A stretch of 64,000 bases of DNA, taken from contig JAAXWF010000003.1 in assembly GCA_013335095.1 (NCBI GenBank), positions 69,960 through 133,959 of the forward strand, written 5' to 3'. Under the pieces are notes generated by a model, which was given only the letters and a program-made list of their open reading frames with translations, did no database searches and had not been told where the DNA came from. Positions 1-16,966 of this stretch are shown piece by piece. The DNA comes from a candidate division WWE3 bacterium. Lineage in GTDB: Bacteria; Patescibacteriota; 4484-211; GCA-002791395. Within the stretch, counting starts at the first letter, position 1, and the number at the start of each line of letters is the position of its first letter. The position numbers and the translations under genes were made by a program.

Positions 1-882
1 TTGCCCGAAATTCTATGGCATTTAGATGAGCCGTTAGCTGACCCGGCCGCTGTTCCGGTATTTTTCTTAAGTCAACTTGCTCGAAAAGACGTCACCGTTG
101 TATTAACTGGTGAAGGTGGAGATGAATTATTTGCAGGTTACAAAGAAGATTTTCAATATCCATTAGGTTCATTATTAAAGCCAATGCCGGGAGCTACCCG
201 CAGTGCGCTGGCTATCGCGTTTGCCGAACTACCAATTCAGAGAGGAAAGGCGCGTGGATATCGAAGCTTATTGAGTGAAAAACAACGCGCCGAACATATA
301 CTCACCGATGTTTTCCGATTTCAGCAGCCACCGATCTTACCCCATTCAGCTCCAGACGCATCAGATGAATTTAGTACGTATTCATTTGATTCATTTTGGA
401 ATAAAGCAAATGGTTTATCTTGGCTCGACAAAATGATGTATCTAGAAACTAGTATCTGGTTAAGTGGTGATCCATTAATGAAGGTAGATAAAATGACCAT
501 GGCGCAATCACTCGAGGCGCGGGTTCCGTTATTAGATATGGAAGTTGTCGAGCTTGCGTTTCAGATCCCCTCAGACTATAAAAATCCCCAGGGAGTCGAG
601 AAATACTTACTACGCCAAGCGTTTAAGGATATCTTACCGACAGATATTTTTGAACGTAAAAAGTCGGCATTTGAATTACCTCTCAAATCATGGCTGGCAC
701 ATGAATTAAAAGACATGGTTAATGAACATCTTTCAATTGATCGGCTCAATGCGTCGCCTTATTTGGATGCAACAATGGCGCGCAAAGTCGTAGACGATCA
801 TCAACAAGATCGTAAAAATTATGCATACGAAGTCTGGGCATTACTGTGCTTTCAATTATGGTATCAGCGATGGATGACATAA
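1..882 (+). CDS. asnB: asparagine synthase (glutamine-hydrolysing), C-terminal synthetase-domain fragment; 5' end lies outside window
   Basis: Translation has the AsnB C-terminal signature (HLDEPLADPAAVP...LTGEGGDELFAGY). Frame is open from position 1, so this is the partial C-terminal half. Confidence 0.75.
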   Translation: MPEILWHLDEPLADPAAVPVFFLSQLARKDVTVVLTGEGGDELFAGYKEDFQYPLGSLLKPMPGATRSALAIAFAELPIQRGKARGYRSLLSEKQRAEHILTDVFRFQQPPILPHSAPDASDEFSTYSFDSFWNKANGLSWLDKMMYLETSIWLSGDPLMKVDKMTMAQSLEARVPLLDMEVVELAFQIPSDYKNPQGVEKYLLRQAFKDILPTDIFERKKSAFELPLKSWLAHELKDMVNEHLSIDRLNASPYLDATMARKVVDDHQQDRKNYAYEVWALLCFQLWYQRWMT

Positions 883-886
883 TATT

Positions 887-2041
887 ATGCGAACGCTCGT
901 TTTTGGCCACGCCTATTCAGCTGCCTATAACCGAATCGACAAATTGAGCCGTTTAGCATCCGATAAACGAGTCCAGCGGCTTGGTGTTGTTATCCCATCA
1001 CCTTGGCATGATCGGATGATGGATACCCCACGTAACTTTTCTCGAGTTTCGGTTGATGATTTATATGATGTCTTTACCATTAAACCGCTCTTTACAGGAT
1101 CACAATCTAAATATTTATTTATGCCCAATGCGATTGCCCATGCGATTGAGTCGTTTAATCCGGATGTGATACATGTAGAACAAGAGCCCCACGACCTCAT
1201 TACCGCAGAGATTATTTGGATGAATCTGCAAGTTCATCGGCGTCCAATTGTTGTGTTTACCTGGGAGAATATACAACGACCGATGTCGATATTTAATAAA
1301 CGTGCTTGTAATGTCGTATTGAAACATGTCGACCATATTATTGCCGGGAATCGTGCTGCGGTCTCATTGAATGAATCGTATGGGTACAAGGGCAAAGCTT
1401 CGGTTCTCCCCCAATTTGGTGTCGATACAAATCGTTTCAGAAAAATTGACGTGAATAGTCTAAAAGAATCGCTTGGATTGCGCGATCGATTTATCGTTGG
1501 ATTTGTTGGACGATATACAAGTGAAAAGGGGATTGGGACATTAATTGAAGCCGTGAAAAAACTTGCTGCCGATTCGGATATTCCGCGTTTTACTCTGTTA
1601 TTGATGAGCTCTATGCAGCCACCAAAATGGATTACCGAAATATCTAATGATTTAAAAGATTACATTCGATTTGTTTCGTCGATACCACACGAAGAATTTC
1701 CTCGGTATATGAACCTTTTTGATGTTCTGGTGTTACCATCTGAATCTCAGATAGAGTGGCAAGAGCAGTTCGGACGAGTTCTTATCGAAGCCATGGCATG
1801 TGAGGTTCCTACCATCGGCTCATCAAGCGGTGCAATTCCCGAAGTTATCGGTGATCATGGATGGATCTTTCCAGAAAAAAATTCGTTAGCGTTATCTGAT
1901 ACTCTTAAGCAAGTAATGTTAAACCCATCTCAATTAAACGAAAAAAGACATGAAGTCCGAGAATACGTTACGAATAATTTTACCCATGAGGTCGTTTGCG
2001 ATCAGACGATTAAGATTTGGGAGGAATGTATAAACAAATGA
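887..2041 (+). CDS. glycosyltransferase family 1 (GT4-type)
   Basis: C-terminal GT-B motif FGRVLIEAMACEVPTIGSSSGAIPEVI (the E-X7-E region typical of GT4). Confidence 0.75.
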   Translation: MRTLVFGHAYSAAYNRIDKLSRLASDKRVQRLGVVIPSPWHDRMMDTPRNFSRVSVDDLYDVFTIKPLFTGSQSKYLFMPNAIAHAIESFNPDVIHVEQEPHDLITAEIIWMNLQVHRRPIVVFTWENIQRPMSIFNKRACNVVLKHVDHIIAGNRAAVSLNESYGYKGKASVLPQFGVDTNRFRKIDVNSLKESLGLRDRFIVGFVGRYTSEKGIGTLIEAVKKLAADSDIPRFTLLLMSSMQPPKWITEISNDLKDYIRFVSSIPHEEFPRYMNLFDVLVLPSESQIEWQEQFGRVLIEAMACEVPTIGSSSGAIPEVIGDHGWIFPEKNSLALSDTLKQVMLNPSQLNEKRHEVREYVTNNFTHEVVCDQTIKIWEECINK

Positions 2042-3141
2042 GAATTTTATATGTTGATCATGCGCCGTACGAAGGGGGAGCCGAAGTCTCGCTCAAACAT
2101 CTTATTGTGCATTTAGATAAAAAGAAGTATCAGGCCATCATCGCTGCTCCCAAAGGTGCGGTGTACTCTGAGCCACTTATTACACATAACGTTCCCTACA
2201 TTCCAATTTCGTTTCATTGGTTGCACTATCATTTGCTTTATCCGATTGTATTGGATGTTATAAATCTGTTGATAATTATTAGAAAGGTTCGTCCAAATAT
2301 AGTGCACTTAAATACGCGGGTAACTAATGTACTAGGAGGAATATTAATTCAATTAAGACCTTTTTTGCCTTTTCTCCAATCAATCCGATTCATCCATCAT
2401 GTTCGAGATAAAGATCCTTTGCCTCAATGGAAATTTAATCTTATCGGTAAAGCCGATTGGCTTATTGCAAATTCTTCTCAAGTTAAAGAGTTTTTAGTTG
2501 AAGGTGGTATCGATGAATCCAAGATTTCTGTGATTTATAACGGTGTCGATCTATCAATTTTCAATCCAGTTAGATTCCCGTGTACCGAAGAATCATTTCC
2601 TAAGATTACTTTTATTGGACAACTATATCCACGAAAGGGTGTTCTGTATCTATTGGAAGCGATGAAGCGAATTGTACAAGTATTCCCCAATGTCCGATTA
2701 GAATTAGCGGGGCAGGATCCTACTCCGCATCAGTCGAACCTGCGTCAATACAAACAATTGGCATCCCAGCTTGGAATCGAGCAATCAATCACTTGGTTAG
2801 GGTATCGTGACGATATCGCCCGGGTTTTGTCGTGTACTGATGTCTTTGTGTTGCCTTCTTTAGAGGAGCCGTTTGGAAGAGTTCTTATAGAAGCAATGGC
2901 CCTTAAAATTCCGGTTGTTGCAACTAGGGTTGGTGGTATTCCCGAGATCGTCGTTGATCAACAGACAGGTCTACTCGTGCCACCATCCAATAGTACTGCT
3001 TTAGCTGACGCAATAATCACACTCCTTGCCAATGATTCCGTTCGAGAATCAATGGGACAATCAGGGTATAATCGTGTTTGCTTACATTTTGATTTAGCCC
3101 GGCATGTTGAGTCTGTGCAAAACCTGTATAATCAGTTGTGA
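2038..3141 (+). CDS. glycosyltransferase family 1 (GT4-type)
   Basis: FGRVLIEAMALKIPVVATRVGGIPEIV motif. ATG at 2038 overlaps the upstream stop (ATGA coupling); the ORF-track start at 2017 is less likely. Confidence 0.7.
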   Translation: MRILYVDHAPYEGGAEVSLKHLIVHLDKKKYQAIIAAPKGAVYSEPLITHNVPYIPISFHWLHYHLLYPIVLDVINLLIIIRKVRPNIVHLNTRVTNVLGGILIQLRPFLPFLQSIRFIHHVRDKDPLPQWKFNLIGKADWLIANSSQVKEFLVEGGIDESKISVIYNGVDLSIFNPVRFPCTEESFPKITFIGQLYPRKGVLYLLEAMKRIVQVFPNVRLELAGQDPTPHQSNLRQYKQLASQLGIEQSITWLGYRDDIARVLSCTDVFVLPSLEEPFGRVLIEAMALKIPVVATRVGGIPEIVVDQQTGLLVPPSNSTALADAIITLLANDSVRESMGQSGYNRVCLHFDLARHVESVQNLYNQL

Positions 3142-4622
3142 TGTTTTCACGTATCTGGATAATAACTGCTATTAATCGTTTTCTAGAGCCAGTATTCAAG
3201 CGATTTGACTTAATATTATTAGGTCTGATCATCCTCATACTCATTCTCCCTAAGTTTCCATTTATTCCTGTAGAGGGCATTTATGTTAATATCCGCATCG
3301 AAGATTTTTTGATTGCTTTTGTGTATATTCTCTGGTTGCTCGGCTACCTTGCCGGGCGGTATCGTATCGGATCAATTTATAATAGTCACGTTATTCTCTT
3401 TTTTCTTGGGTATGGGTTATTGATTACCTTATTAGGGTTAGAGGTTTTGGGTACGATTAGTAATACCAAGGTTGCTCTTTTACATTGGCTCCGACGAGTC
3501 GAGTACATGGGGATATTTTTTGTCGCGGCTACTGTTTTAAGAAAAGAGGGTTTAAAAACCTATATATATGCACTGTTAGGTACGGGTGTTTTTACCTGGA
3601 TTTATGGCTTTCTTCAATGGAAGGATTTGGTTCCAGGGGTTCACACATTAAGCAAATCGGGACAAATTGGTACTTTTTCGGAAATTGGGTATGTCATTTC
3701 TACCTTTGGTGCCCATTATGATTTTGCTGCATTTTTAATTCTGATGATGGTCTTGTCGATTTGGGGGTATTATTCGCATACCAGCCGAAAATATAAAGTT
3801 TTATTCGTATTTTTAGCGTTTGCTTTCTGGTGGATGTCTCGTTTAGTGTATGGTCGTTCGGCGTATTTAGGTATGTTGGTTGCGGCTATTTTTATCTTTT
3901 TAGTTAAGCGGAGTGCGTTTGTCCTTATTCCTGGATGGGAAGTTTTTCAAACGTTTAGTCGGTATTTTGGTGGCCGTTTTAGTAAGTATTCGTACGAATT
4001 TAAGTTTAATATTTTGCCTTCGCCAATGCCCGAACCTACTCTTGTTATTCCAACACCTACAGTTTTACCCACTGATGTCGATTCATTAACGCCGACTCCC
4101 ACACCAAGTGGAGCATTTGGTGCCGGTGTTTCTGAGCAGGCAAAAGCCACCCAGACTTGGCTCGATATCCATACCCATGAATGGTCTCAGATGCTACGCC
4201 AGTATTTACTACGTCTCGATGTTAACTTTGATCCATCAGCTAATATTCGTATAACTTTATGGCAAGATGCATTGGCCAAGGTCGGTTATAACTTTTTGTG
4301 GGGTGGTGGATACTCAATTAACGGGATTGGTACCGATGGCGATTATGTTCGTCATATTGTTGAGGTTGGAGTGATTGGTTTGTCGGTTTTTCTGTTAATC
4401 CTTTTTGATTTTATGCGTATTTCTTGGCGTACATATCGTCAGGAAACTGATTTAGCTACTCGTCATTTTCATCTGGCGATGATTGCATTTATTATCGGGC
4501 TTTTAATTGAGGCTCTGTTTATTGATATTTTTGCCGCATCAAAAATAGCCCTTCTATTTTGGTTTCTCATGGGATTTGTTGCCCTCTATGCTCCTAAACC
4601 GTCAGAACAGGTTGCCAGGTAA
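3138..4622 (+). CDS. polytopic membrane protein, O-antigen ligase / Wzy-like polymerase family, with an internal Pro/Thr-rich linker
   Basis: About 10 predicted TM helices and a periplasmic loop with a PTPTVLPTDVDSLTPTPTPS low-complexity linker. Lies within a GT cluster. Confidence 0.45.
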   Translation: MMFSRIWIITAINRFLEPVFKRFDLILLGLIILILILPKFPFIPVEGIYVNIRIEDFLIAFVYILWLLGYLAGRYRIGSIYNSHVILFFLGYGLLITLLGLEVLGTISNTKVALLHWLRRVEYMGIFFVAATVLRKEGLKTYIYALLGTGVFTWIYGFLQWKDLVPGVHTLSKSGQIGTFSEIGYVISTFGAHYDFAAFLILMMVLSIWGYYSHTSRKYKVLFVFLAFAFWWMSRLVYGRSAYLGMLVAAIFIFLVKRSAFVLIPGWEVFQTFSRYFGGRFSKYSYEFKFNILPSPMPEPTLVIPTPTVLPTDVDSLTPTPTPSGAFGAGVSEQAKATQTWLDIHTHEWSQMLRQYLLRLDVNFDPSANIRITLWQDALAKVGYNFLWGGGYSINGIGTDGDYVRHIVEVGVIGLSVFLLILFDFMRISWRTYRQETDLATRHFHLAMIAFIIGLLIEALFIDIFAASKIALLFWFLMGFVALYAPKPSEQVAR

Positions 4623-4653
4623 CACTATTTCTAATTTTAATAAAAAGTATGAA

Positions 4654-4690
4654 TAAAAAAATGGAGAGCGTCGTTGTGTTGACGCCCTCC
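4654..4690 (-). terminator. rho-independent terminator for the minus-strand gene 4697..5104
   Basis: Hairpin ggagagcgtc/gacgccctcc (4663-4690) directly after the stop. A 7-nt A-run on plus gives the U-run on the minus transcript. Confidence 0.55.
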
Positions 4691-4696
4691 AGCTGC

Positions 4697-5104
4697 TTAG
4701 TTGTCGCGGTTGAGTAGTACCTCAACGGCCCAGATCGGCGGCTCGTTGGAGGGTGATGTATCTGTCATTCGACAGAACAGACACGTACATCCTATGAGGT
4801 GTTTTCCGCGTGGCGGGAGCTGCTCGAGGCGTGCCGGACCGCCGCTTCCGAGCTGTCCGTCGAACACGGGCACAGTACCATCAGGCTTTGAGTAGCCTTC
4901 AGGTACTGCCACCGCCCCTTTTTCGGGGGGGATAAGCGGCGTGGCTTTCACCTTAGCCAGCTGTTCCTGGAAGTTCCAGGGTTTGGGCTGTGGGAAAAAC
5001 CTGTGTTCTGGCAAAAATGCCCACTTAAAAGCGAGCGCCAGGCCTCCGAACGCGATCAGGCCGAGTATGAACCTGATCAGGTCGAACCAAAAAAGTCCGT
5101 CCAA
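4697..5104 (-). CDS. hypothetical membrane-anchored protein (N-terminal TM helix, CxC..C motif); very high GC3 codon usage
   Basis: TTG start at 5104 preceded by strong SD taaggagg. High-GC coding in a low-GC genome. Own terminator downstream. Confidence 0.45.
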   Translation of the reverse strand: MDGLFWFDLIRFILGLIAFGGLALAFKWAFLPEHRFFPQPKPWNFQEQLAKVKATPLIPPEKGAVAVPEGYSKPDGTVPVFDGQLGSGGPARLEQLPPRGKHLIGCTCLFCRMTDTSPSNEPPIWAVEVLLNRDN

Positions 5105-5184
5105 TGTCGGCCTCCTTACGGTTATCCGATATAGCTATATTATACGTTAGTTGAAAAGGTTATTGAGATCTGAGTGGAAATTTA

Positions 5185-5230
5185 GAAAAATAGGGCCGGA
5201 TTTCGTGGTTGTAAACCACGAAACCCGGCC
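5185..5230 (-). terminator. rho-independent terminator of gene 5308..5739 (cassette terminator, copy 1)
   Basis: ggccggatttcgtggtt / aaccacgaaacccggcc stem followed on the minus strand by ctattttt. Confidence 0.6.
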
Positions 5231-5307
5231 GAAGCCGACGACGAACTGATGTGGGCCGTCAAGCGATGTGAACATTGCAGGGTGGTGCAACCCTGCGGGC
5301 TAGGGCG

Positions 5308-5739
5308 TTAGCCGTCAATCCAGACGACGGTCGCCCAACAATTGGCGTACCAGGGGACTCCTAGTAGCCAGCCGTTGCTGAGTGCCTTAGGGCACGCGAC
5401 CGGGTTCCAGCTCCACAGCTGGGTGGTGTTGTAGCTGACATGTCCACACTCTGTGAACTGTCCGTTATAGTAGGCCGTCTCCCATGGCTTGGTCGGGTTA
5501 AAGAAGTTACCCGTCCAGGTGACCTGGGTCGACTGGGCCCCGGGGCAGGCCGAGTAGTGGGCGATGTCCAGCTGCTGATCAGCGGGCTGATCAATCGACG
5601 CCGACATCGGGGCCGAGTTGTCGACCTGCTGGTCGGCCGCGTGGGCCGACTGCGGTGCGAACGAGCCGATCAGGCTGGCGATCACTGCGAGCAGGGTCAC
5701 GAGCTGGGCGAGACGCTTCATGGTGTAGCTGCGCAGCAT
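5308..5739 (-). CDS. small secreted protein, 4 Cys, Trp-rich C-terminus (paralog family member 1)
   Basis: ATG at 5739 with SD aaaggag 6 nt upstream. Sec-type signal peptide MKRLAQLVTLLAVIASLIGSFAPQSAHA. GC3 near saturation. The ORF-track N-terminal extension (TTG at 5862) would bury the signal peptide, so the shorter start is preferred. Confidence 0.6.
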   Translation of the reverse strand: MLRSYTMKRLAQLVTLLAVIASLIGSFAPQSAHAADQQVDNSAPMSASIDQPADQQLDIAHYSACPGAQSTQVTWTGNFFNPTKPWETAYYNGQFTECGHVSYNTTQLWSWNPVACPKALSNGWLLGVPWYANCWATVVWIDG

Positions 5740-5802
5740 ATGCTGCTCCTTTCGTAAAGCTGAAATAAGCTTAGGGGCGTAGTGTGCCCCTCTTCCATAA
5801 AA

Positions 5803-6078
5803 ATCCCGTCCGCTGACTAGCACCATCATCAGGGGGCGGGGTAAAGTTGTTTTGGCTTTCAAAACAACTTAATCCCACCTCCTAACAAAGGGCTAGAAGC
5901 AAGGTAATGCACCAAACTGTCAATGTACAGAATATGAGAATTACTCACATTCATATAATAATGATAGTACTATGGGTTAGGAAAGCAAATGTTTAAGTAT
6001 GAAATTTGTACAATTTATGAAGAAAAATAGGGCCGGATTTCGTGGTTAGACCACGAGATCCGGCCAGTGCCGACGACG
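5803..6078. repeat. ~276-bp noncoding direct repeat, copy 1 (terminator of upstream cassette + AT-rich promoter region + GC-rich leader of downstream cassette)
   Basis: About 95% identical to 6604..6879 by direct comparison of the two stretches. Confidence 0.8.
6022..6065 (-). terminator. rho-independent terminator of gene 6134..6553 (cassette terminator, copy 2)
   Basis: ggccggatttcgtgg / ccacgagatccggcc stem plus U-run on the minus transcript. Confidence 0.6.
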
Positions 6079-6133
6079 TTAGGACGTCAAGCTTTGCGTA
6101 CAGTGCAGGGCGGTGCAACCCTGCCAGGTTAGT

Positions 6134-6553
6134 TTACCACCAGATAGGCTCTTCCCACCAGCAATTGCTCCCCTTCGGGAGCGGTAGCGGGTGACCTTCC
6201 CACCAGCTGGGGCACGGAACGTCATTTGTCCACCACTCTCGGGCCCAGTTTCGGTGACCGCAGTAGATCCAGGTCCGTGTCACTTCGAAGTAGAGGTTGC
6301 TGTTGGCAGCCACGTAGTGACCAGTCCAATGGACTTGCGTTCGTTCCGCAGTTGGGCACTGGGCGTACTTCACCATCTCGTCGCTGGACGAATCCGGCAG
6401 GTCGATGGCAGTACGGCTGATCTGGGTGCTCTTGGCGATCTCGCTATTTGCCGCAGCGGCCTTTTGTGGCGTCGCCAGGCTAATGAGCGTCAGACCGAAG
6501 AGCAAGACGAACAGGGTGGACAGCCTCTTCACGAGGCGCTTGTTGCGCAACAT
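6134..6553 (-). CDS. small secreted protein, 4 Cys, Trp-rich C-terminus (paralog family member 2)
   Basis: SD aaggag 6 nt before the ATG. Signal peptide LSTLFVLLFGLTLISLATPQKAAAA. Shares Y..CP.A..TQV.WTG...CGH...CP...NCW...W with 5308..5739. Confidence 0.6.
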   Translation of the reverse strand: MLRNKRLVKRLSTLFVLLFGLTLISLATPQKAAAANSEIAKSTQISRTAIDLPDSSSDEMVKYAQCPTAERTQVHWTGHYVAANSNLYFEVTRTWIYCGHRNWAREWWTNDVPCPSWWEGHPLPLPKGSNCWWEEPIWW

Positions 6554-6603
6554 TTTGCGCTCCTTCTTAGGTGATTTGGGGCGCTAGAGCCCCGACTTTT
6601 CCT

Positions 6604-6879
6604 ATCCCGTCCGCTGACTAGCACCATCATCAGGGGGCGGGGTAAAGGTGTTTTGGTTTTCAAAACAACTTGATCCCACCTCCTAACAAAGGGCTAGAAG
6701 CAAGGTAATTCACCAAACTGTCAATGTACAGAATATGAGAATTACTCACATTCATATAATAATGATAGTACTATGGGTTAGGAAAGCAAATGTTTGAGTA
6801 TGAAATTTGAACAAAGTGAGAAGAAAAATAGGGCCGGATTTTGTGGTTAGACCACAAAATCCGGCCAGTGCCGACGACG
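6604..6879. repeat. ~276-bp noncoding direct repeat, copy 2
   Basis: See 5803..6078. Confidence 0.8.
6823..6866 (-). terminator. rho-independent terminator of gene 6898..7251 (cassette terminator, copy 3)
   Basis: Perfect stem ggccggattttgtggt / accacaaaatccggcc plus U-run. Confidence 0.6.
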
Positions 6880-6897
6880 GTTAGGCCGTCTGGCCTT

Positions 6898-7251
6898 TTA
6901 CTCGAACCGGTAATACCAGTTATAGTAGATCCCGTCTTGGTAGAGGGATCCTGGGTACTGGTTCCCGGCCAGGTCGAACGTCGGGGGGGTAACCCCGTAG
7001 ACGGGGCCGCTGTGGGCCTTGTGGGGGCCCATCAGCGGGACGGTGATCATAACGCTCGAGCAGTCCGAGCGGATGATTGTACCGATTACGCCACCACTGT
7101 AGAGGTTGATCACGATCTGACAGACCTTTGCCGCCGGGCTGGCGGCGGTGGTCGAGGCCTCGACGTGGGGCGGGTTAACCGCCGTGAAGCCGAGGGACGC
7201 GAGCAGGGCCATGATAATGAGCCAGTGGCTCCAGTGCAGGCGCGGCAACAT
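6898..7251 (-). CDS. small secreted protein (signal peptide, 2 Cys), high GC3
   Basis: SD aaaggagcggcatATG. A cccccatttggggg hairpin sits just upstream of the SD. Hydrophobic N-terminus WLIIMALLASLGFTA. Confidence 0.5.
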   Translation of the reverse strand: MLPRLHWSHWLIIMALLASLGFTAVNPPHVEASTTAASPAAKVCQIVINLYSGGVIGTIIRSDCSSVMITVPLMGPHKAHSGPVYGVTPPTFDLAGNQYPGSLYQDGIYYNWYYRFE

Positions 7252-7491
7252 ATGCCGCTCCTTTCTCCCCCAAATGGGGGTGGTAGGAAGATCCTCCGTG
7301 ACCGGTGTCAGGAGGCATTACTGCTTATTATCCTAATAGTCAGAAATGCCCCCTGAAGAGGTCTTGGATATGTGCCTGGTATGTAAACGTTCGATAGAGG
7401 CATGTAGAACATGCCTATTTCTAGTATAGACCCACTGAGCCTATAGTAAAGTTGATGGGAGATTTAGTTCATTCTTTGTTACAATAGCCAT

Positions 7492-8400
7492 ATGAAGTTG
7501 TCGGTGATCGTTCTTTCATACAATACCCGTGCTCAAACTCGTGATTGTCTGGCATCATTGGTTGGGTTACGTGATGTCTCTATCGGAAAGGATTTTGAAG
7601 TCATCGTTGTTGATAATTTTAGTAGTGACGGTAGTCAGCAAATGATAAAAGATGAATTCCCTCAAGTGACTTTAATCGAACAACGTTCTAATCTCGGATT
7701 TTCTAAAGGTAATAATGTCGGAATCAACTCACTTCATAAGGATAGCCAATATGTTCTGTTTTTGAACCCCGATACAATTGTTCCTTCGGGCACATTAAGC
7801 GAAATGACTAAATTTATGGATGAGAATTTGATGGTAGGTGTGGCTACGTGCAAGGTCCAATTAGCCGATGGGGGTATTGATATGGATTGTCATCGTGGAT
7901 TTCCTCGTCCATGGGTCGCCGCAACTCACTTTGTTGGACTCGATAAGTTATTTCCGAATAATCGGTTAGTATCCGAATATCATTTGGGATGGGAAGATTT
8001 ACAACGTCCTCATGAGATCGGTTCGGCTGTAGGAGCATTTCTTTTTGTCCGTCGTACTATCGGTGATTCAATAAACTGGTTTGATGAAGATTACTTCTTA
8101 AACGGTGAAGATATCGATCTGTGTTACCGAATTCATAAAGCCGGATACTTAGTGATGTATTATCCAAAAGTAACGATTACTCATTTGCGCGGAGTTGCAA
8201 AAGGTACCCGTAAAGAATCAACCCACATAACCAGTGCTGATTATGAACGGAAAAAGATGGTAACTAATGCAACGGTGAATGCAATGCAGCTGTTTTATGA
8301 TAAACACTACCGTAATAAGGATCCAAGATGGAAAAATTTGATCGTTGACGCAGGTATCTTTTTGCTCCGTCAAAAGAGACTGTGGTCTATTCACTCATGA
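7492..8400 (+). CDS. glycosyltransferase family 2
   Basis: N-terminal LSVIVLSYNTRAQTRDCLASL...VIVVDNFSSDGS (GT-A fold, DXD region). Confidence 0.75.
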   Translation: MKLSVIVLSYNTRAQTRDCLASLVGLRDVSIGKDFEVIVVDNFSSDGSQQMIKDEFPQVTLIEQRSNLGFSKGNNVGINSLHKDSQYVLFLNPDTIVPSGTLSEMTKFMDENLMVGVATCKVQLADGGIDMDCHRGFPRPWVAATHFVGLDKLFPNNRLVSEYHLGWEDLQRPHEIGSAVGAFLFVRRTIGDSINWFDEDYFLNGEDIDLCYRIHKAGYLVMYYPKVTITHLRGVAKGTRKESTHITSADYERKKMVTNATVNAMQLFYDKHYRNKDPRWKNLIVDAGIFLLRQKRLWSIHS

Positions 8401-9383
8401 CCCGTTTAATTAGACTTCTCATATTATGTTGTATAAGTATCTTTTTCCTATGGTTGGCGATGAAAGATGTTCATTTAGGTGTTGTTTGGGAATCGTTGAG
8501 CAAGTTCAACAAATTAGGTGTTCTTGGGGCGTTATGTATTTGGATGTGCGGATATATGATCCGGGCGTTCCGTTGGCAAATTTTTTTGAATGCAATTGAT
8601 CATGTGTCATGGCGTAAATCGTTTAACGTCTTGGTTATTGGTTTTATGTCGAATGCATTACTTCCATTACGAGCAGGTGAATTTATTCGAGCATATCTTT
8701 TGAATCAGGTAAATGAAAAAATACCAACCAGTACTGCTTTTGCGACCATTGCCGGTGAGCGGGTATTTGATGGATTGATTGTCGTTGCGCTAACGATTTG
8801 GGGAGCATCGTCACTCCCAGTTCCTGATTGGGCTTCTGCCACCATTCAATTCTCAACGATCTTATTTATTTTCTGTTTTTTTTGTTTTTTGATTGTCGCT
8901 CATTATGCTCGACAATCAATTCAAATTATCAAATCTTTTAGTCGATATTTCCCCAAACGATTAAACCCTCTTATCTATACTTTGAGCGACAAATTTATCG
9001 GCGGTTTAGTGACTCTGACTTCTTGGAAAAACCTGCTGCTGCTACTAGTCCTAAGTATTATTACCTGGTCATTTGAGCTCATTTTTATGTTGCTTTGTGC
9101 CTATAGTTTTCATTTTTCTGTATCATTACATCAAATTGCCTTGCTTACCGGTTTATTAAATCTAGGGGTAATGATCCCGGCTGCACCTGGTGGGGTCGGT
9201 ACTATCGAATTTATCAATGTAGCTGTGTTAACCTTGTTTAGTATTCAAAATTCCGAAGCTTTAGCATATGGCGTTGTTACCCACGCGGCCACAACGATCG
9301 GGATCCTCGGACTGGGCATCTTTGCATTATCCCGTATGCATACAAGCATTGCTCAAATTTGGCAGCGAGTTCGTAATCAATAA
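8397..9383 (+). CDS. flippase-like / lysylphosphatidylglycerol-synthase-TM-family polytopic membrane protein
   Basis: 8 TM helices. Family is typically paired with GT2. ATGA overlap with the upstream gene. Confidence 0.45.
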   Translation: MTRLIRLLILCCISIFFLWLAMKDVHLGVVWESLSKFNKLGVLGALCIWMCGYMIRAFRWQIFLNAIDHVSWRKSFNVLVIGFMSNALLPLRAGEFIRAYLLNQVNEKIPTSTAFATIAGERVFDGLIVVALTIWGASSLPVPDWASATIQFSTILFIFCFFCFLIVAHYARQSIQIIKSFSRYFPKRLNPLIYTLSDKFIGGLVTLTSWKNLLLLLVLSIITWSFELIFMLLCAYSFHFSVSLHQIALLTGLLNLGVMIPAAPGGVGTIEFINVAVLTLFSIQNSEALAYGVVTHAATTIGILGLGIFALSRMHTSIAQIWQRVRNQ

Positions 9384-9416
9384 GTGTTCATATCCGGTGT
9401 GTTTTATAATAGGTAT

Positions 9417-10577
9417 ATGCCGCGTATTGGAATTGACGCCCGAATCTATAAAACAGGAATTGGCCGGTACACAAGAAATTTATTAGATCAACTTGCCACC
9501 ATCGCACCGGATGATTCCGAGTTTATTATCTTTTTACGTAAGGATGGCTTTGACGAATATCAGCCACCAGGTAAACGTTTCACCAAAGTTCTGGCAGATT
9601 ATCAGCCGTACACATTTTCCGAACAGATTCGTTTTTTAAACGATCTACGCAAATATCGACTCGATTTAGTTCATTTCACCAATTTTAATGTGCCGATTTT
9701 ATGGTGGGGAAACTATGTGGTTACCATTCATGACTTAATTCACCAAAGTCACTCAACGTTTGGTAGCAGTACTCGAAATTATCTGTATTATGTCTTTAAA
9801 AAATTGGTCTACTGGTTTGTGATTCGGTGGGTAGGATTGCGTGCTCAGCGCGTTATTGTACCTTCTATTGCAACAAAAGATGATATCGTGCGTGATCTCG
9901 GAATCGATCCTGCTAAAGTAGTTGTAACCTACGAAGGTATGGATGAATCGTTGCTCGCACGTAGTAATAATGCGACTACATCTGAAGATGATGCGGTACT
10001 TAAACGACACGGTATTGATTCGGGGTACATTTTATATGTTGCGACTATGTATCCGCATAAAAACCACGCATCACTCATCGAGGCTTTTAGACAATTATTG
10101 CATGATGGTCGAACTTATAAACTGGTTTTGGTTGGCAAGGTTGATTTCTTCTCAAATAAACTTAGGGCATCGGTATTAGATTCAGATATAAGGGACCAGG
10201 TGATTTTTCCTAATTTTAACGTGGCTGATGGATATCTATCCGATCAAGAACTGCAGGTTCTTTATCGCCATGCATCAATCTATGTATTTCCTTCGTTGAA
10301 GGAGGGGTTTGGTATACCTATTCTGGAAGCTCAAGCATACGGATTACCGGTCGTTTCATCGAATAAATCATGTCTTCCTGAAATTGGTGGTGATTCGGTT
10401 ATATATGTAAATCCCGAAAATCCAGCTGAGCTTAAAACTGCAATTACCAAATTACTTGATGATGCCTCGCTGCGTGATTCATTGGTTAAAAAAGGGTATG
10501 AAAATATAAAGCGGTTTAGCTGGAACACTATGGCTAAAGAAACGTATCAGGCATATCGGGAGGTCTTAAAAATATGA
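9417..10577 (+). CDS. glycosyltransferase family 1 (GT4-type)
   Basis: C-terminal GFGIPILEAQAYGLPVVSSNKSCLPEIGGDSV motif. ATG at 9417 preferred over GTG at 9384. Confidence 0.7.
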   Translation: MPRIGIDARIYKTGIGRYTRNLLDQLATIAPDDSEFIIFLRKDGFDEYQPPGKRFTKVLADYQPYTFSEQIRFLNDLRKYRLDLVHFTNFNVPILWWGNYVVTIHDLIHQSHSTFGSSTRNYLYYVFKKLVYWFVIRWVGLRAQRVIVPSIATKDDIVRDLGIDPAKVVVTYEGMDESLLARSNNATTSEDDAVLKRHGIDSGYILYVATMYPHKNHASLIEAFRQLLHDGRTYKLVLVGKVDFFSNKLRASVLDSDIRDQVIFPNFNVADGYLSDQELQVLYRHASIYVFPSLKEGFGIPILEAQAYGLPVVSSNKSCLPEIGGDSVIYVNPENPAELKTAITKLLDDASLRDSLVKKGYENIKRFSWNTMAKETYQAYREVLKI

Positions 10578-11671
10578 AGATTGCCTTAGTCCATGACGAT
10601 TTTATGCAGTGGGGCGGAGCGGAGCGTTTGTTTACGGCCCTAGCAGAAATGCTCCCAGAATCACCGATATTTACCTCAATGGTATCGGATGACGTATTAA
10701 CCAAGTCCAAACTTGATCGAAGCCGTTTCCATACCTCATGGATGGATAAGATTCCCGCTAAAAAAATATTTAATAAAGCAGTTTTTGCTTGGTATCCAAT
10801 GACATTCGAGAACTTTGATTTTACCGAGTATGACATTGTAATCTCTTCATCGACGCGTTTTGCGCACGGCATAATTACCAAGCCTTCAACGCGCCATATC
10901 GCCTATATCAACTCACCATTTCGCGGATTTTGGGAACCACGGGCATATTTTGGGGATAGTCGTGCAGGAAAACTGTCATATTGGTCACTCCTTCCCTTGT
11001 TATCATATTTTCGAGAATGGGATTATATCGCCGGACAACGAGCCGATATTGTTATCGCGAATAGCCAAACATCCCGTGCTCGAGTCCAAAAATATTACCG
11101 TCGGGACGCTCAAATTATGTATCCGTTTGTTGATCTCGATCGTTTTAAACATTCAGCTAAACCATCATTTACGTTGCCAGATGAATATTTTGTAGTAGTT
11201 TCTCGTTTAGTCGAATGGAAGCGTATTGATGTTGTTATTCAGGCAGCTAACGCGACAGGAAAACAAGTTCTTATCATTGGTACTGGACCCGATAAAGCAC
11301 GACTCGAAGACCTGGCTGGTTCAACGGTCAAATTGCTCGGTTTTGTACCCGATGACGAAGCTACGTATATTCTTGAGCATGCCACCGCGCTTATTCATCC
11401 TCAAAAAGAAGATTTCGGAATGACCGTATTAGAAGCGAATGCCGTAGGAACTCCGGTTATCGCATATAAACGAGGGGGCGCGACTGAAACCGTTGTTGAA
11501 GGTGAAACAGGAACCTTTTTCAAGAAACAAGAAGCATCATCTTTAAGTGAAGCACTTAGTCAATTTGATCGGTCATTATATGATAAAGAGGTAATGGTGG
11601 CTCATGCTCAAACGTTTTCTAAACAATCATTTCTTAATGGATGGCGAGAATTTCTTGATCACCTGGCTTAG
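10574..11671 (+). CDS. glycosyltransferase family 1 (GT4-type)
   Basis: DFGMTVLEANAVGTPVIAYKRGGATETV motif. Confidence 0.7.
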   Translation: MKIALVHDDFMQWGGAERLFTALAEMLPESPIFTSMVSDDVLTKSKLDRSRFHTSWMDKIPAKKIFNKAVFAWYPMTFENFDFTEYDIVISSSTRFAHGIITKPSTRHIAYINSPFRGFWEPRAYFGDSRAGKLSYWSLLPLLSYFREWDYIAGQRADIVIANSQTSRARVQKYYRRDAQIMYPFVDLDRFKHSAKPSFTLPDEYFVVVSRLVEWKRIDVVIQAANATGKQVLIIGTGPDKARLEDLAGSTVKLLGFVPDDEATYILEHATALIHPQKEDFGMTVLEANAVGTPVIAYKRGGATETVVEGETGTFFKKQEASSLSEALSQFDRSLYDKEVMVAHAQTFSKQSFLNGWREFLDHLA

Positions 11672-12521
11672 GGCGATTCGAATTCGGCAATGGATTAAAA
11701 ACCTTATTGTCATTGCTCCGCTTATTTTTTCCGGTCAATTATTAATTTTTCAGGATATAATCAAGACGCTCGATGCCTTTTGCGCCTTCTGTTTGGCCAG
11801 TAGTGCTGTTTATTTATTTAATGACTTGTATGATCAGGATGTTGATAAACTCCATCCCCAAAAACGAAACCGCCCAATTGCCTCAGGTATAATTTCATCT
11901 CAATCTGCAACTTTTGTATCGCTCCTCTTTGTTGTTCTCTCATTGCTTATTGGACAACAGTTAGGATGGCTATTTAATGTGGTCCTTTCGGGTTTTTTCC
12001 TAGTGAACATATTTTATACGATGGGTATTAAAAAATTAGTGATTTGGGACGTTATTTTTCTTGCATTAAGCTTTGTTATTCGCGCGATTGGTGGCGTTGT
12101 GGCAATTAATGCGTTTTTGTCGCCTTGGCTTTTTGTCTTAACGTTATTTTTAGCGGTACTTTTAGCTCTGGGTAAAAGAAGACATGAGTTAGTATTGTTA
12201 GGGGGAAATGCCGGAAAGCACCGGCGAATTCTAGATAAATATACCGTCCAGCTTTTTGACCAATTGATGGTAGTAATGGTAACGGCGAGTTTAATGGCTT
12301 TCATGTTATATACAATGGCTGAAGAAACCGTGATTCATGTAGGGTCAGTAAAGCTTGTCTATTCAATGCCTTTAGTACTGTACGGTTTGTTCCGTTATTT
12401 GTATCTGGTGTATCGCTATGAACAAGGGGGAAATCCGACCGAGACGCTTTTGTCCGATCCACCCCTTCTTATGAGCGTAATCTTGTGGGGGGTGCTCGCG
12501 GTTGCTATAATTTACACCTGA
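11637..12521 (+). CDS. UbiA-family prenyltransferase (decaprenyl-phosphate phosphoribosyltransferase-like)
   Basis: Motif NDLYDQDVDKLHPQKRNRPIASG (UbiA NDxxDxxxD). 8-9 TM helices. Overlaps the upstream GT by ~35 nt in a different frame. Confidence 0.6.
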   Translation: MDGENFLITWLRAIRIRQWIKNLIVIAPLIFSGQLLIFQDIIKTLDAFCAFCLASSAVYLFNDLYDQDVDKLHPQKRNRPIASGIISSQSATFVSLLFVVLSLLIGQQLGWLFNVVLSGFFLVNIFYTMGIKKLVIWDVIFLALSFVIRAIGGVVAINAFLSPWLFVLTLFLAVLLALGKRRHELVLLGGNAGKHRRILDKYTVQLFDQLMVVMVTASLMAFMLYTMAEETVIHVGSVKLVYSMPLVLYGLFRYLYLVYRYEQGGNPTETLLSDPPLLMSVILWGVLAVAIIYT

Positions 12522-12531
12522 CTAGATTTAT

Positions 12532-13983
12532 ATGAGGAAGAGTCAATTATTTATTGCAATTTTTCAGCTTATCGTCGACTATACCGCCGTTATCTCGGCG
12601 TTTTCCGTCGCTTATTGGCTTCGTAGCCGTTGGGATGGTAGCCCACTTGTTCCGTTTGGTGATTTTTTTCTTTTTGCTATGCTGGCTGGTTTAATTTATG
12701 TGTTGATGTTTGGTTATTTAGGGTTGTATGCGATTCGGCGTCATCGTGACCTGGTCGATCAATTATTCGGTATGATTGTTGGAGGACTTTCGGCAACTGC
12801 TTTATCTGGTTCTATAATTTACTTTGGGAAGAACTTCGATTACTCACGGTTAATTCTTGGAACGACATTTATGTTATCAATTGTTTTTGTATGGTTTGGC
12901 CGACTATTTATCGATCAATTGGAGCATATTTGGTATCGCAAAGGATTTGGTATTGTACGCACGCTACTTATCGGTTCGGGATCTCTTTTAACAATGACCA
13001 TTAATGGGTACAGCACCTCAGATGGAAGTGCTTTTCGGGTAATCGGCTTACTGTACACTGGGTCTGATGAGCTGGAAAAATCTATTAACGGTGTACGAGT
13101 TCTTGGTACGTTGAGCGTTGATGGCGTAGAAAAGTTAATTAAGGAGGAAGGCCTTCATGAGGTCGTCGTGGCAGATTCCCAAATAGATGAAAATATTGCC
13201 CTCGATCTAATAAATCTATGCGAAATGTACGGTGTGGTGTTTAAATTCGTTCCGGATACCTTCGAGGTCGCGACTGCACGTGTTGTTACTCATGATTTGG
13301 CGGGGTTAGCACTGATTGAACTTAGGCCCACGATACTTGCTGGCTGGATGCTCATTGTTAAACGTGTTCTCGATTTGATCGGTTCCATTTGTGCACTCGT
13401 TCTTTTATCTCCATTATTTGTTATTACGGCGATTGCTATTCGATTAGATTCCAATGGTCCAATCATCTTCAAGCATCGTCGAGTTGGTCGAAATGGCGTT
13501 GAGTTCGATCTATATAAATTCCGTAGTATGTACATGGTTGAAAAAAATGGACAGATGTTGCATGCCAGTGAAAATACTGCTGTCGAAAAACTTAAAGAGC
13601 AGCAATCTAATTACAAACTAGAAAATGACCCTCGTGTCACTAAAGTCGGAAGCATAATTCGCAAAATGAGTATCGATGAATTACCTCAATTTATTAATGT
13701 TATTCGTGGTGAACTCAGTCTTGTTGGACCTCGGGCATATTTAGCTAAAGAACTCGAAAAGCAGCAGGGAACTTACCCGCAGACTAAGGAACTCGTACGC
13801 CGACTTTTAGCTGTTAAACCTGGGATTACGGGATTGTGGCAAGTTTCAGGACGAAGCAATATTGATTTTAAAGAACGAGTGGCGATGGATGCTTATTATG
13901 CTACTCATGCGACAATCTGGATGGATATTAAATTGTTGTTCCAAACTATTCCAGTAGTATTAAAAGGTTCCGGCGCGATGTAA
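12532..13983 (+). CDS. polyprenyl-phosphate sugar phosphotransferase (WbaP / bacterial sugar transferase family)
   Basis: C-terminal domain LDLIGSICALVLLSPLFVITAIAIRLDSNGPIIFKHRRVGRNGVEFDLYKFRSM and ...ELPQFINVIRGELSLVGPR. Confidence 0.75.
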   Translation: MRKSQLFIAIFQLIVDYTAVISAFSVAYWLRSRWDGSPLVPFGDFFLFAMLAGLIYVLMFGYLGLYAIRRHRDLVDQLFGMIVGGLSATALSGSIIYFGKNFDYSRLILGTTFMLSIVFVWFGRLFIDQLEHIWYRKGFGIVRTLLIGSGSLLTMTINGYSTSDGSAFRVIGLLYTGSDELEKSINGVRVLGTLSVDGVEKLIKEEGLHEVVVADSQIDENIALDLINLCEMYGVVFKFVPDTFEVATARVVTHDLAGLALIELRPTILAGWMLIVKRVLDLIGSICALVLLSPLFVITAIAIRLDSNGPIIFKHRRVGRNGVEFDLYKFRSMYMVEKNGQMLHASENTAVEKLKEQQSNYKLENDPRVTKVGSIIRKMSIDELPQFINVIRGELSLVGPRAYLAKELEKQQGTYPQTKELVRRLLAVKPGITGLWQVSGRSNIDFKERVAMDAYYATHATIWMDIKLLFQTIPVVLKGSGAM

Positions 13984-14037
13984 ACAATGGTATCGGTCCT
14001 TTTAATTGTGCGTTATTTCTTTTATCCTTAATACAGT

Positions 14038-15882
14038 ATGTTTCGAATATATGCTGAAAACAAATGGCGAATAGTATTAGTGCTTGGCGTTATTATAACC
14101 ATGCAACTCTGCTTGTATGTGCTGTTTATAAAGCCAATCCGCGATATTGCATATACTGCCGGGGAATTATATGGCGAAGTATTAGCTTTTCGTTCCACTA
14201 TTTCTTCTAATGATCTCTCGAGCGCCGAAACTCATATGAGTTCAATTAAGCTACGGTTAGAGGATCTTCGTGTGCGCCTGAATAAAATTAGGTATGTCCG
14301 TCATTTCCCTTATTTAAGTGGATATTACGAAGATTCTCAGAACCTTATTCAGGCAGGGATCATTTTTAGCAATTCAGCCGAAGACTTTTTAGTCGATTTT
14401 TTGCCGTTTGCCCCGGTCGTTGGTATCGGTTCTGGTTCGGAAACTGGTACTAGTGATCAAAAGTTGCAACAGCTGGTGACGCTCGCCCCTCAATTGCTTC
14501 CGACTATTGATCGGAGCATTGATGATCTAGAAAAAGCCTTGCCATATCTATTAAATTTGCATTGGGAGCTATATCCAAACACATCAGAGTATCCGATTCG
14601 GGACACACTTCATAAAGTTGTAGATGTTTCTACCGTCGCTCAATCGTATTTATCTGAGGCAAGGACATTTCTGAAAGTCTTTCCCTCTATGTTCGGTGAG
14701 CCAAGTACCAAAAAATACTTGGTTCTGTTCCAAAACGATAAGGAAATCCGTCCAACAGGAGGGTTCATTACTTCTTATACCACGTTAACCATTGATAGCG
14801 GGAAGATTACGATCGAAGATGCAAAAAATATATATGAAGTCTCTAAGAGCGAAGGTTTTTTACCGGCACCTGATCCGATTAAGCAATACTTAAAAGTTAC
14901 CGCATGGCACATGCGAGATACAAACTTTTCACCAGATTTTAAAACCTCAATGGATACGTTTGATAGTTATTGGCGACAACTTGGCCTGACTAAGATTGAC
15001 GGCATCATAACGCTAGATACCCAATTTGTCGCTGGCTTATTGAAACAACTTGGACCAATCGAGATTGCCGACTATGATAATGATTTTTCTGCATATCCAA
15101 ATGTACCGGCAGAATGCAAGCAAGGTGGAAGTACTTTTACCTCGGATAATGTCGTGTGTCGGTTAGAGTACTATGCCCAGCGCTTAACCAACGAGCAAAC
15201 AACACGAAAAGCTGTTATCGGAGATTTGATGGAAAAGATGTTTGATCAATTGATGACCGCTCCTTCAAATAAATGGTATCCGTTAATTTCTGAAGTTCTA
15301 ACGGAGCTTAGTCAAAAACACATGCTCACGTACTTTAAAGATCAAGACGTTCAAGATCTTGGTGAACGACTTAACTGGACTGGTCGTATCCAAGATACTT
15401 CGGGTGACTATCTCCATATTAATGATGCCAATCTTGCTGGTCTAAAATCGGATATGTATCTAAAGCGTTCGGTGGATCAACGATTAGATATTGCTGCTGA
15501 TGGAAGTATTACAAAAACCGTTGCGTTAACCTACGAAAATACTGGTGCGTTTGACGGATGGCTCAATGCCACAGCTCGTAACTACGTTCGAGTGTACGTG
15601 CCAAAGGGATCAAAACTTATTGACGTCAGTGGCGGGGAGGCTAAAACGACGACTCACGATGATTTAGGTAAAACAGTTTTTGATAACTTTATTACGGTAA
15701 AGCCAAAGTCATCTACTACGATAACTTTTACCTATCAGATCCCCATGAAGTATAGTGATGATATGGACATCTTAATCCAAAAACAACCAGGTATTGATCG
15801 AGCTTATCATTCTTTGGATGTAAATGGTCAGAAACAACAGTTTGAATTACTTACTGATTTGCGTTTAAACATAAAAAAGTGA
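14038..15882 (+). CDS. large N-terminally membrane-anchored hypothetical protein (DUF4012-like, envelope-associated)
   Basis: Single N-terminal TM helix, then a long soluble domain. Sits next to the sugar transferase. Confidence 0.35.
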   Translation: MFRIYAENKWRIVLVLGVIITMQLCLYVLFIKPIRDIAYTAGELYGEVLAFRSTISSNDLSSAETHMSSIKLRLEDLRVRLNKIRYVRHFPYLSGYYEDSQNLIQAGIIFSNSAEDFLVDFLPFAPVVGIGSGSETGTSDQKLQQLVTLAPQLLPTIDRSIDDLEKALPYLLNLHWELYPNTSEYPIRDTLHKVVDVSTVAQSYLSEARTFLKVFPSMFGEPSTKKYLVLFQNDKEIRPTGGFITSYTTLTIDSGKITIEDAKNIYEVSKSEGFLPAPDPIKQYLKVTAWHMRDTNFSPDFKTSMDTFDSYWRQLGLTKIDGIITLDTQFVAGLLKQLGPIEIADYDNDFSAYPNVPAECKQGGSTFTSDNVVCRLEYYAQRLTNEQTTRKAVIGDLMEKMFDQLMTAPSNKWYPLISEVLTELSQKHMLTYFKDQDVQDLGERLNWTGRIQDTSGDYLHINDANLAGLKSDMYLKRSVDQRLDIAADGSITKTVALTYENTGAFDGWLNATARNYVRVYVPKGSKLIDVSGGEAKTTTHDDLGKTVFDNFITVKPKSSTTITFTYQIPMKYSDDMDILIQKQPGIDRAYHSLDVNGQKQQFELLTDLRLNIKK

Positions 15883-15908
15883 GGTCCGGATGAACCTCAC
15901 TTCCGTTT
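15874..15908. terminator. bidirectional rho-independent terminator between convergent genes
   Basis: gtgaggt-ccggatga-acctcac hairpin flanked by an A-run on one side and a T-run on the other. Confidence 0.55.
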
Positions 15909-15915
15909 AGGCGAT

Positions 15916-16248: not shown

Positions 16249-16357
16249 ATGGCCTCCTGATTATGCCGGTTTGGCCTATAATAATATTATACCTTATTTT
16301 GATCGCTGTTCAATGGTTTCTTGTGCTGTACTAGTCAGACTGAGTACACTTGTTAGT

Positions 16358-16951: not shown

Positions 16952-16966
16952 ATGATTATGTAACCG

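Follow-up and report, generated by a model that had tools for sequence, protein, structure and literature searches.

A GC-rich islet of four small genes, three for predicted export, in the glycan-synthesis cluster of a low-GC candidate division WWE3 bacterium

Here we describe a 2.87-kb locus (4623-7491, minus strand) in a 64-kb window, by which we mean the whole stretch of DNA analysed (64,000 nucleotides (nt); mean guanine-plus-cytosine (GC) content 43%), of a 260-kb contig from a metagenome-assembled genome (MAG) of a candidate division WWE3 bacterium. The locus is a compositionally deviant genomic islet in which GC-rich cargo is set in AT-rich wiring, and it has a counterpart in a second low-GC genome. 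To our minds, the reading that best accounts for it, albeit one that we hold at about even chances, sees the cargo as drawn from a common non-host gene pool and wired into host-like expression modules for exported proteins. On this reading, the 2.9 kb inserted into the WWE3 glycan-synthesis cluster comprise four autonomous minus-strand transcription units, each unit being made up of an AT-rich, host-like spacer (the presumed promoter), a leader with GC hairpins, a strong Shine-Dalgarno (SD) sequence, a GC-rich coding sequence (CDS) and one or two 3' hairpins including a terminator. The cargo proper (proximal 5' untranslated region (UTR), CDS and 3' hairpins) most likely came out of the non-host pool, because its host-alien codon dialect recurs at the only other locus known for the family, and would then have been joined to host-like expression modules. 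The module of terminator, spacer and leader may later have been duplicated or homogenised by gene conversion, which would explain why it is 95% identical between units whose CDSs have diverged to saturation, and the 5' and 3' hairpins may protect the mRNA and insulate each unit.

GC content in 300-nt windows rises to four peaks (0.58-0.63) between 4651 and 7350, with troughs of 0.42-0.49 and flanks of ~0.40, and the four minus-strand genes reach GC contents of 0.57-0.62 and, at third codon positions (GC3), of 0.63-0.86:

4623-7491, minus strand: the islet as inserted, 2.87 kb, from the stop of a Wzy-like gene to the start of a GT2 (glycosyltransferase family 2) gene; limits taken from the empty locus of a relative and from Logan junctions.
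4697-5104, minus strand: gene of the 135-residue protein (HGA91_04820); TTG start after GGAGG; N-terminal hydrophobic anchor predicted; GC 0.57, GC3 0.63.
5308-5739, minus strand: gene of the 143-residue, predicted secreted protein (HGA91_04825); signal peptide to AHA|AD; 4-Cys, Trp-rich domain; GC 0.62, GC3 0.83.
6134-6553, minus strand: gene of its 139-residue, predicted secreted paralog (HGA91_04830); signal peptide to AAA|AN; 4 Cys, 11 Trp; GC 0.59, GC3 0.76.
6898-7251, minus strand: gene of the 117-residue, predicted secreted protein (HGA91_04835); signal peptide to VEA|ST; 2 Cys; Tyr/Trp-rich C-terminus; GC 0.62, GC3 0.86.

GC3 in 28 native genes averages 0.346 (standard deviation (sd) 0.028, maximum 0.40), with FtsZ and other core genes at 0.28-0.35. 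The islet genes stand +10 to +18 sd above this background, a marked deviation which, together with the windowed GC, bears out what the first-pass annotation of this DNA had claimed, namely a high-GC array within a low-GC cluster. That annotation gave the gene products 135, 144, 139 and 117 residues, which holds for three of the four, the second protein having 143, and all four are identical to the NCBI hypothetical proteins whose names are listed above. We take the minus strand to be coding because GC3 (well above GC at the first and second codon positions, GC1 and GC2), SD sequences, signal peptides and terminator orientation all agree on it. The long plus-strand open reading frames (ORFs; 171, 127 and 105 residues) are shadow ORFs. 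The gene caller used for Logan, a collection of independent assemblies, had annotated the antisense 171-residue shadow ORF (76-591 of contig L026, equivalent to window 6841-7356, plus strand) in place of the 117-residue gene; catalogues built on such gene calling can miss or mis-strand GC-rich genes in low-GC genomes.

As had also been proposed, the 143- and 139-residue proteins are clear paralogs (34% identity, E 3e-16) that share four aligned Cys and have 8 and 11 Trp, respectively, while the mature part of the 117-residue protein is unrelated to either. When 1.84 billion representatives were searched by HMMER with a profile of the mature domain, the two window paralogs and, apart from weak matches to long repeat proteins, a single further homolog were retrieved, P0005 (122 residues, E 7e-5), which retains the four Cys and an RTQVHWTG motif. 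Word-indexed searches of 5.8 billion clusters returned self matches only for the 143- and 117-residue proteins, and no added member with a family alignment that included P0005. The 4-Cys, Trp-rich family is previously undescribed and has three members among ~15 billion proteins, about equidistant from each other (34-37% amino-acid identity; synonymous divergence (dS) 1.3-1.8, i.e. saturated) and all with GC3 of 0.76-0.88. The six orphan proteins examined all form singleton clusters at 90% identity, and the four islet proteins have no match in Pfam, PHROGs, NCBIfam, PADLOC or PDB sequences. The family was found neither in JGI metagenome contigs nor in viral contigs, and the latter hold no 117- or 135-residue islet protein either; for the 135-residue protein, checked beyond the collections just named by exact look-up and viral scan only, no relative emerged. 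A literature search found no description of the phenomenon or of the source runs. What the locus yields, then, is a new and extremely rare family of predicted secreted 4-Cys, Trp-rich proteins.

P0005 lies on identical Logan contigs (L001) in four runs of other projects, SRR34334329, SRR34334330, SRR34334327 and SRR29704197, where it (GC3 0.88) and an adjacent gene for a 105-residue secreted orphan (GC3 0.72) make up an island of ~60% GC in a context of 35-40% GC, with flanking genes of GC3 0.31-0.40 and intergenic DNA of 34-39% GC. It is not in a tandem paralog array. A low-GC gene for a Mutator-family transposase (PF00872, E 2e-7; L001 1941-2963, minus strand) is situated ~430 nt from the P0005/105-residue pair and hints at how such cargo might move.

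Codon usage ties the two loci together. As the first-pass annotation had it, usage in the islet is compositionally foreign: G/C-ending codons prevail in all amino-acid classes (AAG 11:0; CAG 15:3; CTG or CTC for 28 of 34 Leu; no TTA), and relative synonymous codon usage (RSCU) of three window genes is anticorrelated with the host background (r=-0.47) yet correlates with that of the two L001 genes (r=0.79). The dialect is common to non-homologous neighbours, the 117- and 105-residue genes. RSCU of the same three genes bears hardly any relation to that of other GC-elevated genes in the window (r=0.05-0.14), and these (thyA/folA/HIT and two orphans) do correlate with the host (r=0.34-0.39). Amino-acid usage is shifted as well, with Ala, Pro and Trp up and Lys and Ile down, and so is GC2, which fits long evolution under a GC-favouring regime.

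That the islet interrupts an operon-like glycan cluster is indicated by gene order in a relative. A GT2-based search with one genome per species led to the WWE3 MAG CG22_combo_39_12 (contig L005; JGI contig L017 is from the same organism), which is collinear with window 7492-17746 (>10 kb) and is the only relative with conserved synteny, its GT2 protein being only 54% identical to ours. Since its Wzy-like gene (3783-5345) and its GT2 gene (5369-6283) share a strand and have 23 nt between them, 4623-7491 is an insertion; the islet is missing from this syntenic site in L005 and L017, and neither these contigs nor a third (L018) contain a GC-rich stretch, no 300-nt window in them being at or above 50% GC. 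The placement of the islet between a Wzy-like and a GT2 gene, as originally described, is correct, whereas the Wzy label itself has no direct backing (no Pfam match of the window protein) and holds via homology only, the window protein being homologous to one from L018 (E 9e-20) that itself passes Pfam Wzy_C. Upstream of the 117-residue unit, the following region separates the islet from the resumed cluster:

7346-7491, strand unassigned: divergent region between the 117-residue leader and the GT2 start, 41% GC, with a putative plus-strand promoter, TTGATG-N17-TACAAT.

Assigned by eye, this candidate promoter could re-start the interrupted glycan operon.

With a MAG as source and a composition contrast this extreme, a chimera formed during assembly or binning, in which reads from a high-GC organism were joined to a WWE3 contig, has to be considered. 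For this to be so, composition would have to switch eight times, and each time precisely at the limit of a transcription unit. Moreover, two Logan contigs (L025, L026) from an independent assembly of run SRR11449211 are 100% identical to window 1-5832 and 6766-15674, confirm both outer junctions between low and high GC and break only inside the two internal 276-nt repeats, short-read assemblers being prone to break at internal repeats; and the same architecture is found at P0005 in four other runs. We therefore regard the probability of a chimera as close to negligible.

Each of the four genes has its own SD and its own terminator, as the first-pass annotation stated, while the GC hairpin it saw upstream of every SD is present in three of the four units and missing from the 135-residue one. 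Parts of the units, all on the minus strand, are as follows:

4662-4691, minus strand: terminator of the 135-residue gene; 11-bp stem, then TTTTTTT.
5105-5193, minus strand: spacer upstream of the 135-residue gene, 35% GC, with a TATAAT hexamer inside.
5194-5230, minus strand: terminator of the 143-residue gene; 17-bp stem, then CTATTTTTCT; the terminator occurs in three copies overall.
5277-5296, minus strand: first 3'UTR hairpin of the 143-residue unit, GCAGGGTTGCACCACCCTGC; counterpart in the 139-residue unit at 6104-6124.
5773-5791, minus strand: GC hairpin in the proximal 5'UTR of the 143-residue gene, ~25 nt upstream of the SD.
5803-6078, minus strand: conserved 276-nt block, copy 1; terminator of the 139-residue gene at 6031-6065, 144-nt spacer of 30% GC with TTGACA, and 24-bp leader hairpin at 5831-5883 with AGGAGG.
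6576-6595, minus strand: GC hairpin in the proximal 5'UTR of the 139-residue gene.
6604-6879, minus strand: second copy of the conserved 276-nt block, with 95% identity to the first; terminator of the 117-residue gene at 6832-6866, spacer of 31% GC, and leader hairpin at 6632-6684.
7252-7345, minus strand: structured leader of the 117-residue gene; two predicted GC hairpins, the proximal one pairing with the SD in the minimum free energy (MFE) fold; z -4.4.

Read along the minus strand, the order within a unit is 144-nt spacer, leader hairpin(s), SD, CDS and 3' hairpin(s) ending in the terminator. The spacer carries a perfect TTGACA hexamer, and the leader a 24-bp hairpin containing an SD-like AGGAGG, followed by a GC hairpin directly upstream of the real SD, AAGGAG (z -2.8 to -4.4). 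Transcription is predicted to begin at the foot of the leader hairpin, near 5886 and 6687. Intrinsic terminators lie directly 3' of all four genes on the same strand, with 3'UTR fold z-scores of -5.5 to -9.0; those of the 143-, 139- and 117-residue units are three near-identical copies of a 16-17-bp hairpin followed by CTATTTTTCT (6 arm matches observed versus 0.11 expected by chance). The recurring terminator sequence is AACCACRAAATCCGGCCCTATTTTT; it was not found in the contigs of GTDB species representatives, and therefore the MAG is not itself such a representative. A 3'UTR hairpin, GCAGGGTTGCACC.CCCTGC, is conserved in the 143- and 139-residue units. Base composition follows this anatomy: the 144-nt spacers have a GC content of 0.30-0.31, leaders 0.48-0.52, CDSs 0.57-0.62 and 3'UTRs 0.60-0.63, with pooled host intergenic DNA at 0.38. 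GC-richness tracks the presumed transcribed segments, and the presumed non-transcribed spacers resemble the host. Within the conserved leader (5863-5803 and 6664-6604, minus strand) a short TTG-initiated frame can be read, MK(A/T)KT(T/P)LPRPLMMVLVSGRD; this MK(A/T)KT(T/P)LPRPLMMVLVSGRD frame is in frame with the 143-residue gene, giving an ORF of 184 residues, and out of frame with the 139-residue gene, and is probably non-coding.

Conservation between units is mosaic. Nucleotide identity of the 143- and 139-residue units amounts to 95% in the 276-nt block, 32% over the 50-63 nt that immediately precede the start codon, 46% in the CDS (34% amino-acid identity; dS 1.84, saturated) and 74% in the 3'UTR. 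With a block 95% identical beside saturated CDSs, we conclude that duplication or homogenisation of the regulatory module came much later than the divergence of the coding parts; the 64-kb window holds no third copy of the block. The 117-residue gene, unrelated in its mature part, has the same terminator and a similar SD and start context. Its 5' end (SD and signal peptide) and that of the 143-residue gene are weakly similar, which could be convergent and is not used as evidence here.

Homogenisation of this kind raises the option that GC-biased gene conversion in a recombining tandem array drove GC upwards, and a eukaryotic precedent could be seen in the GC-rich secreted multigene families that are reported for AT-rich genomes (PMC10438818). 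The block, 95% identical beside saturated CDSs, is indeed a sign of conversion or recent duplication. However, the homogenised tract holds the most AT-rich part of the islet (30-31% GC), the GC-rich CDSs are the least similar parts, GC is raised by codon position (GC3 0.76-0.86 versus GC1 and GC2 near 0.5) and P0005 has its high GC outside any tandem paralog array. So to our minds, biased conversion as the source of the GC-richness seems very unlikely.

GC-rich islands in AT-rich genomes are also a classic signature of structured non-coding RNAs, and conserved repeats between diverse small ORFs superficially resemble chromosomal integron arrays. Sedentary chromosomal integrons, such as those of Vibrio, are arrays of cassettes flanked by VCR (Vibrio cholerae repeat) elements, and the islet is like them in having small orphan ORFs of the same orientation between conserved, hairpin-forming repeats. 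It is unlike them in lacking IntI, in having only 3-4 units that come with their own AT-rich spacers (rather than as promoterless cassettes) and in its repeats, which comprise terminator, presumed promoter and leader and not attC: perfect hairpins plus T-tract without separated R''/R' boxes. No integrase ORF is found within or beside the islet. An RNA interpretation, for its part, has to face three-base periodicity, intact ORFs with SDs and signal peptides, and conservation with P0005 at the protein level despite saturated DNA divergence; Rfam gave no match to the islet at gathering score and chance-level matches only, hence no family, even at E<=1. Taken together, the notion of structured RNAs or an integron-like cassette array is largely refuted here and in our estimate exceedingly unlikely.

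As for the hairpins, known 5' mRNA stabilisers include the 5' stem-loop of ompA and the STAB-SD of Bacillus thuringiensis cryIIIA. The islet resembles these in its large hairpin with an SD-like AGGAGG far upstream, its GC hairpins before the real SD and its strong 3' hairpins, a likeness seen in the sequence alone; there is, however, no sequence homology, and the SD-like element of the islet sits inside a hairpin and would be paired. A role in mRNA stabilisation may thus be envisaged, and the locus provides compact presumed parts (promoter, leader and terminator) from a bacterium of the candidate phyla radiation (CPR).

What the proteins might do can be approached from their predicted export. 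Three of the four, as first annotated, have the features of Sec signal peptides when inspected for hydropathy, charge and an AXA site: a positive n-region, a 12-residue h-region (mean Kyte-Doolittle 2.6-2.9) and a cleavage site at residues 32-34. The 143-, 139- and 117-residue products hence look Sec-exported, with predicted cleavage by signal peptidase I. The 135-residue protein has an N-terminal hydrophobic segment only, with a net charge of -1 and no AXA site, and may be a small protein with an N-terminal membrane anchor. In the paralogs, two disulfides would be expected to stabilise a mature domain predicted to be beta-rich, and the many presumably exposed aromatic residues suggest binding of a glycan or a surface ligand outside the cell. 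We infer that the proteins may have an extracellular role, in binding or in antagonism, at the cell surface or where a partner cell is contacted. The prevailing view of CPR bacteria (Patescibacteria) is of a life attached to other cells, and the small proteins that they export are prime candidates for this interface; hardly any of them has been characterised.

In this context, Actinobacteria are known for small Sec-dependent bacteriocins and disulfide-stabilised secreted inhibitors (lactococcin 972, tendamistat), which the paralogs may match in size, Sec signal peptide, two probable disulfides and a presumed beta-rich fold. Yet there is no sequence or profile similarity to them, and the islet lacks nearby immunity or ABC-transporter genes; nor did Pfam, NCBIfam and PADLOC reveal toxin, immunity or transporter domains in the four islet proteins. 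The effector or bacteriocin roles put forward in the first-pass annotation are guesses. Kinship with HYR_4C (PF23237) was examined and rejected: hhalign gave a probability of 34% over 18 columns, and the window proteins have no Pfam match at E<=0.1. Two long repeat proteins with HYR_4C domains (P0004, P0006) do match the family profile weakly (E 3e-6 and 2e-4), and HYR_4C is like the family in its four cysteines, beta-rich domain and local CGH..Y..TRTW-like motif, but unlike it in motif order.

Returning to origin, a foreign pool is supported by the empty site in the relative, by a dialect anticorrelated with the host in all codon classes, by the shift in GC2 and amino acids and by the transposase that neighbours the P0005 pair. 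In general terms, Patescibacteria are documented to have received genes horizontally (PMC12455944). The islet also shares with horizontally acquired genomic islets its host-deviating composition, its absence from a relative's syntenic site and its cargo of orphan, predicted secreted accessory proteins. It differs from these in lacking an identifiable donor and any integrase, transposase, tRNA or direct repeats at its edges, in that its GC-richness is confined to presumed transcribed segments between host-like spacers, and in that its only homolog turns up again in a low-GC genome. The point about the edges had been made before and stands on inspection of ORFs, Pfam matches and tRNAs: integrase and transposase ORFs are found neither inside the islet nor adjoining it, and the nearest tRNA in the window is at 53986.

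Several of our data weigh against cargo from a non-host pool. No donor came to light, there being no homolog in a high-GC context among the 1.84 billion representatives or the 5.8 billion clusters, and the family is known from two contexts, each of them a low-GC genome. The islet edges offer no mobility genes, tRNA or flanking direct repeats by which entry could be traced. Given the AT-rich spacers within the array, the transfer of one block out of a high-GC genome is insufficient, so that extra steps are needed, and retention of GC3 across saturated synonymous divergence speaks against a simple donor. As to wiring, a sigma-70 scan of the conserved spacer on the minus strand found no promoter and no canonical -10 element; as to protein function, AlphaFold2 predicted beta-strands at a pLDDT of just 42 (single sequence) or 45 (3-sequence alignment). 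A stronger claim of the first-pass annotation, recent acquisition from an actinobacterial-like, high-GC donor, is not established: searches for homologs gave P0005 only, in a low-GC context, with no high-GC-context homolog in ~15 billion proteins, GC3 of 0.76-0.88 was kept despite saturated dS, and the spacers are, at 30-31% GC, like the host.

Much of this can equally be put in favour of a different explanation, a serious rival that we consider possible if somewhat improbable, in which the genes are native to low-GC, CPR-like bacteria, restricted to their lineage and kept GC-rich by selection on the transcript, be it that stable, structured mRNAs are favoured or that translation is controlled through codon choice. 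GC-richness does follow the presumed transcribed region, UTR hairpins included, and stops at spacers of 30-31% GC; synonymous sites are saturated among the three family members while GC3 still is 0.76-0.88 in two low-GC genomes; the same dialect is used by the non-homologous 117- and 105-residue genes; and ~15 billion proteins contain no high-GC homolog. Islet CDSs fold at -0.40 to -0.43 kcal/mol/nt MFE as opposed to about -0.23 in native genes, and below synonymous-codon shuffles (z -3.0 to -5.5). The latter is not specific, though, since window controls behave alike (thyA -4.75, the 208-residue orphan -5.9, mraZ -4.85) and the P0005 CDS does not (z -0.6). Also at odds with selection on the transcript are the missing islet at the syntenic site of the WWE3 relative, the shift in GC2 and amino-acid usage, which comes on top of that in GC3, and the low GC3 (only 0.28-0.35) of FtsZ and other core genes, and exclusive AAG (11:0) together with G-ending Gln and Glu codons is atypical of translational selection in general.

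An extension that would combine mobility with selection, unlikely as we judge it, sees the GC-rich state as a selected, heritable trait of a class of small export cassettes that move from one low-GC, CPR-like genome to another. Whole transcripts (UTR hairpins plus G/C-recoded CDS) would be kept GC-rich for stable, insulated mRNAs or, alternatively, because their translation is coupled to a specific supply of tRNAs or to a partner organism of high GC, and only the non-transcribed spacers would drift towards the AT-richness of the host. If true, this would be a bacterial case of transcript-delimited base composition held against strong mutational bias; plain transfer from an unsampled high-GC lineage, on the other hand, would make for an ordinary though striking islet. 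Either way, a switch in composition at presumed unit boundaries that is repeated in a second, unrelated low-GC genome renders foreign origin versus transcript selection testable.

With respect to the surroundings, the islet is flanked by genes for GT4, Wzy-like, GT2 and LPG_synthase_TM proteins. The LPG_synthase_TM gene follows directly after GT2 in the window (8382-9383) and after two GT4 genes in the WWE3 relative (8631-9626 of L005), a local rearrangement in a glycan cluster whose gene order is collinear elsewhere. The same window also holds a division and cell wall (dcw) cluster (MraZ, a penicillin-binding protein, FtsA, FtsZ), ribonucleotide reductase and CTP synthase.

Elsewhere in the window, a nucleotide-metabolism block at 47287-51414 (thymidylate synthase, dihydrofolate reductase, a HIT protein, a dCMP/cytidine deaminase-domain protein and a cytidylyltransferase-like one) has a GC content of 0.47-0.54 and, in contrast to the islet, a codon usage that still follows the host (r=0.34); an acquisition either older or milder than the islet is the probable explanation. 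Two orphan genes with raised GC, at 28827-29453 (208 residues, GC 0.55, GC3 0.61) and 25244-27076 (610 residues, GC 0.50), encode singleton-cluster proteins with neither signal peptide nor family match, and the gene of the 208-residue one comes with a strong SD, a hairpin resembling a terminator and a promoter of canonical form, TTGCAA-N17-TATAAT. Finally, two further genes were noted: one at 56445-56951 (GC 0.52) for an Imm5-like immunity protein (PF21805, E 2.5e-36), i.e. a polymorphic-toxin immunity gene, and one at 58274-61066 for a 930-residue AAA_21/AAA_23 ATPase, which PADLOC matches best to Ppl (E 4e-38) and less well to LmuB-, AriA- and GajA-type defence ATPases.

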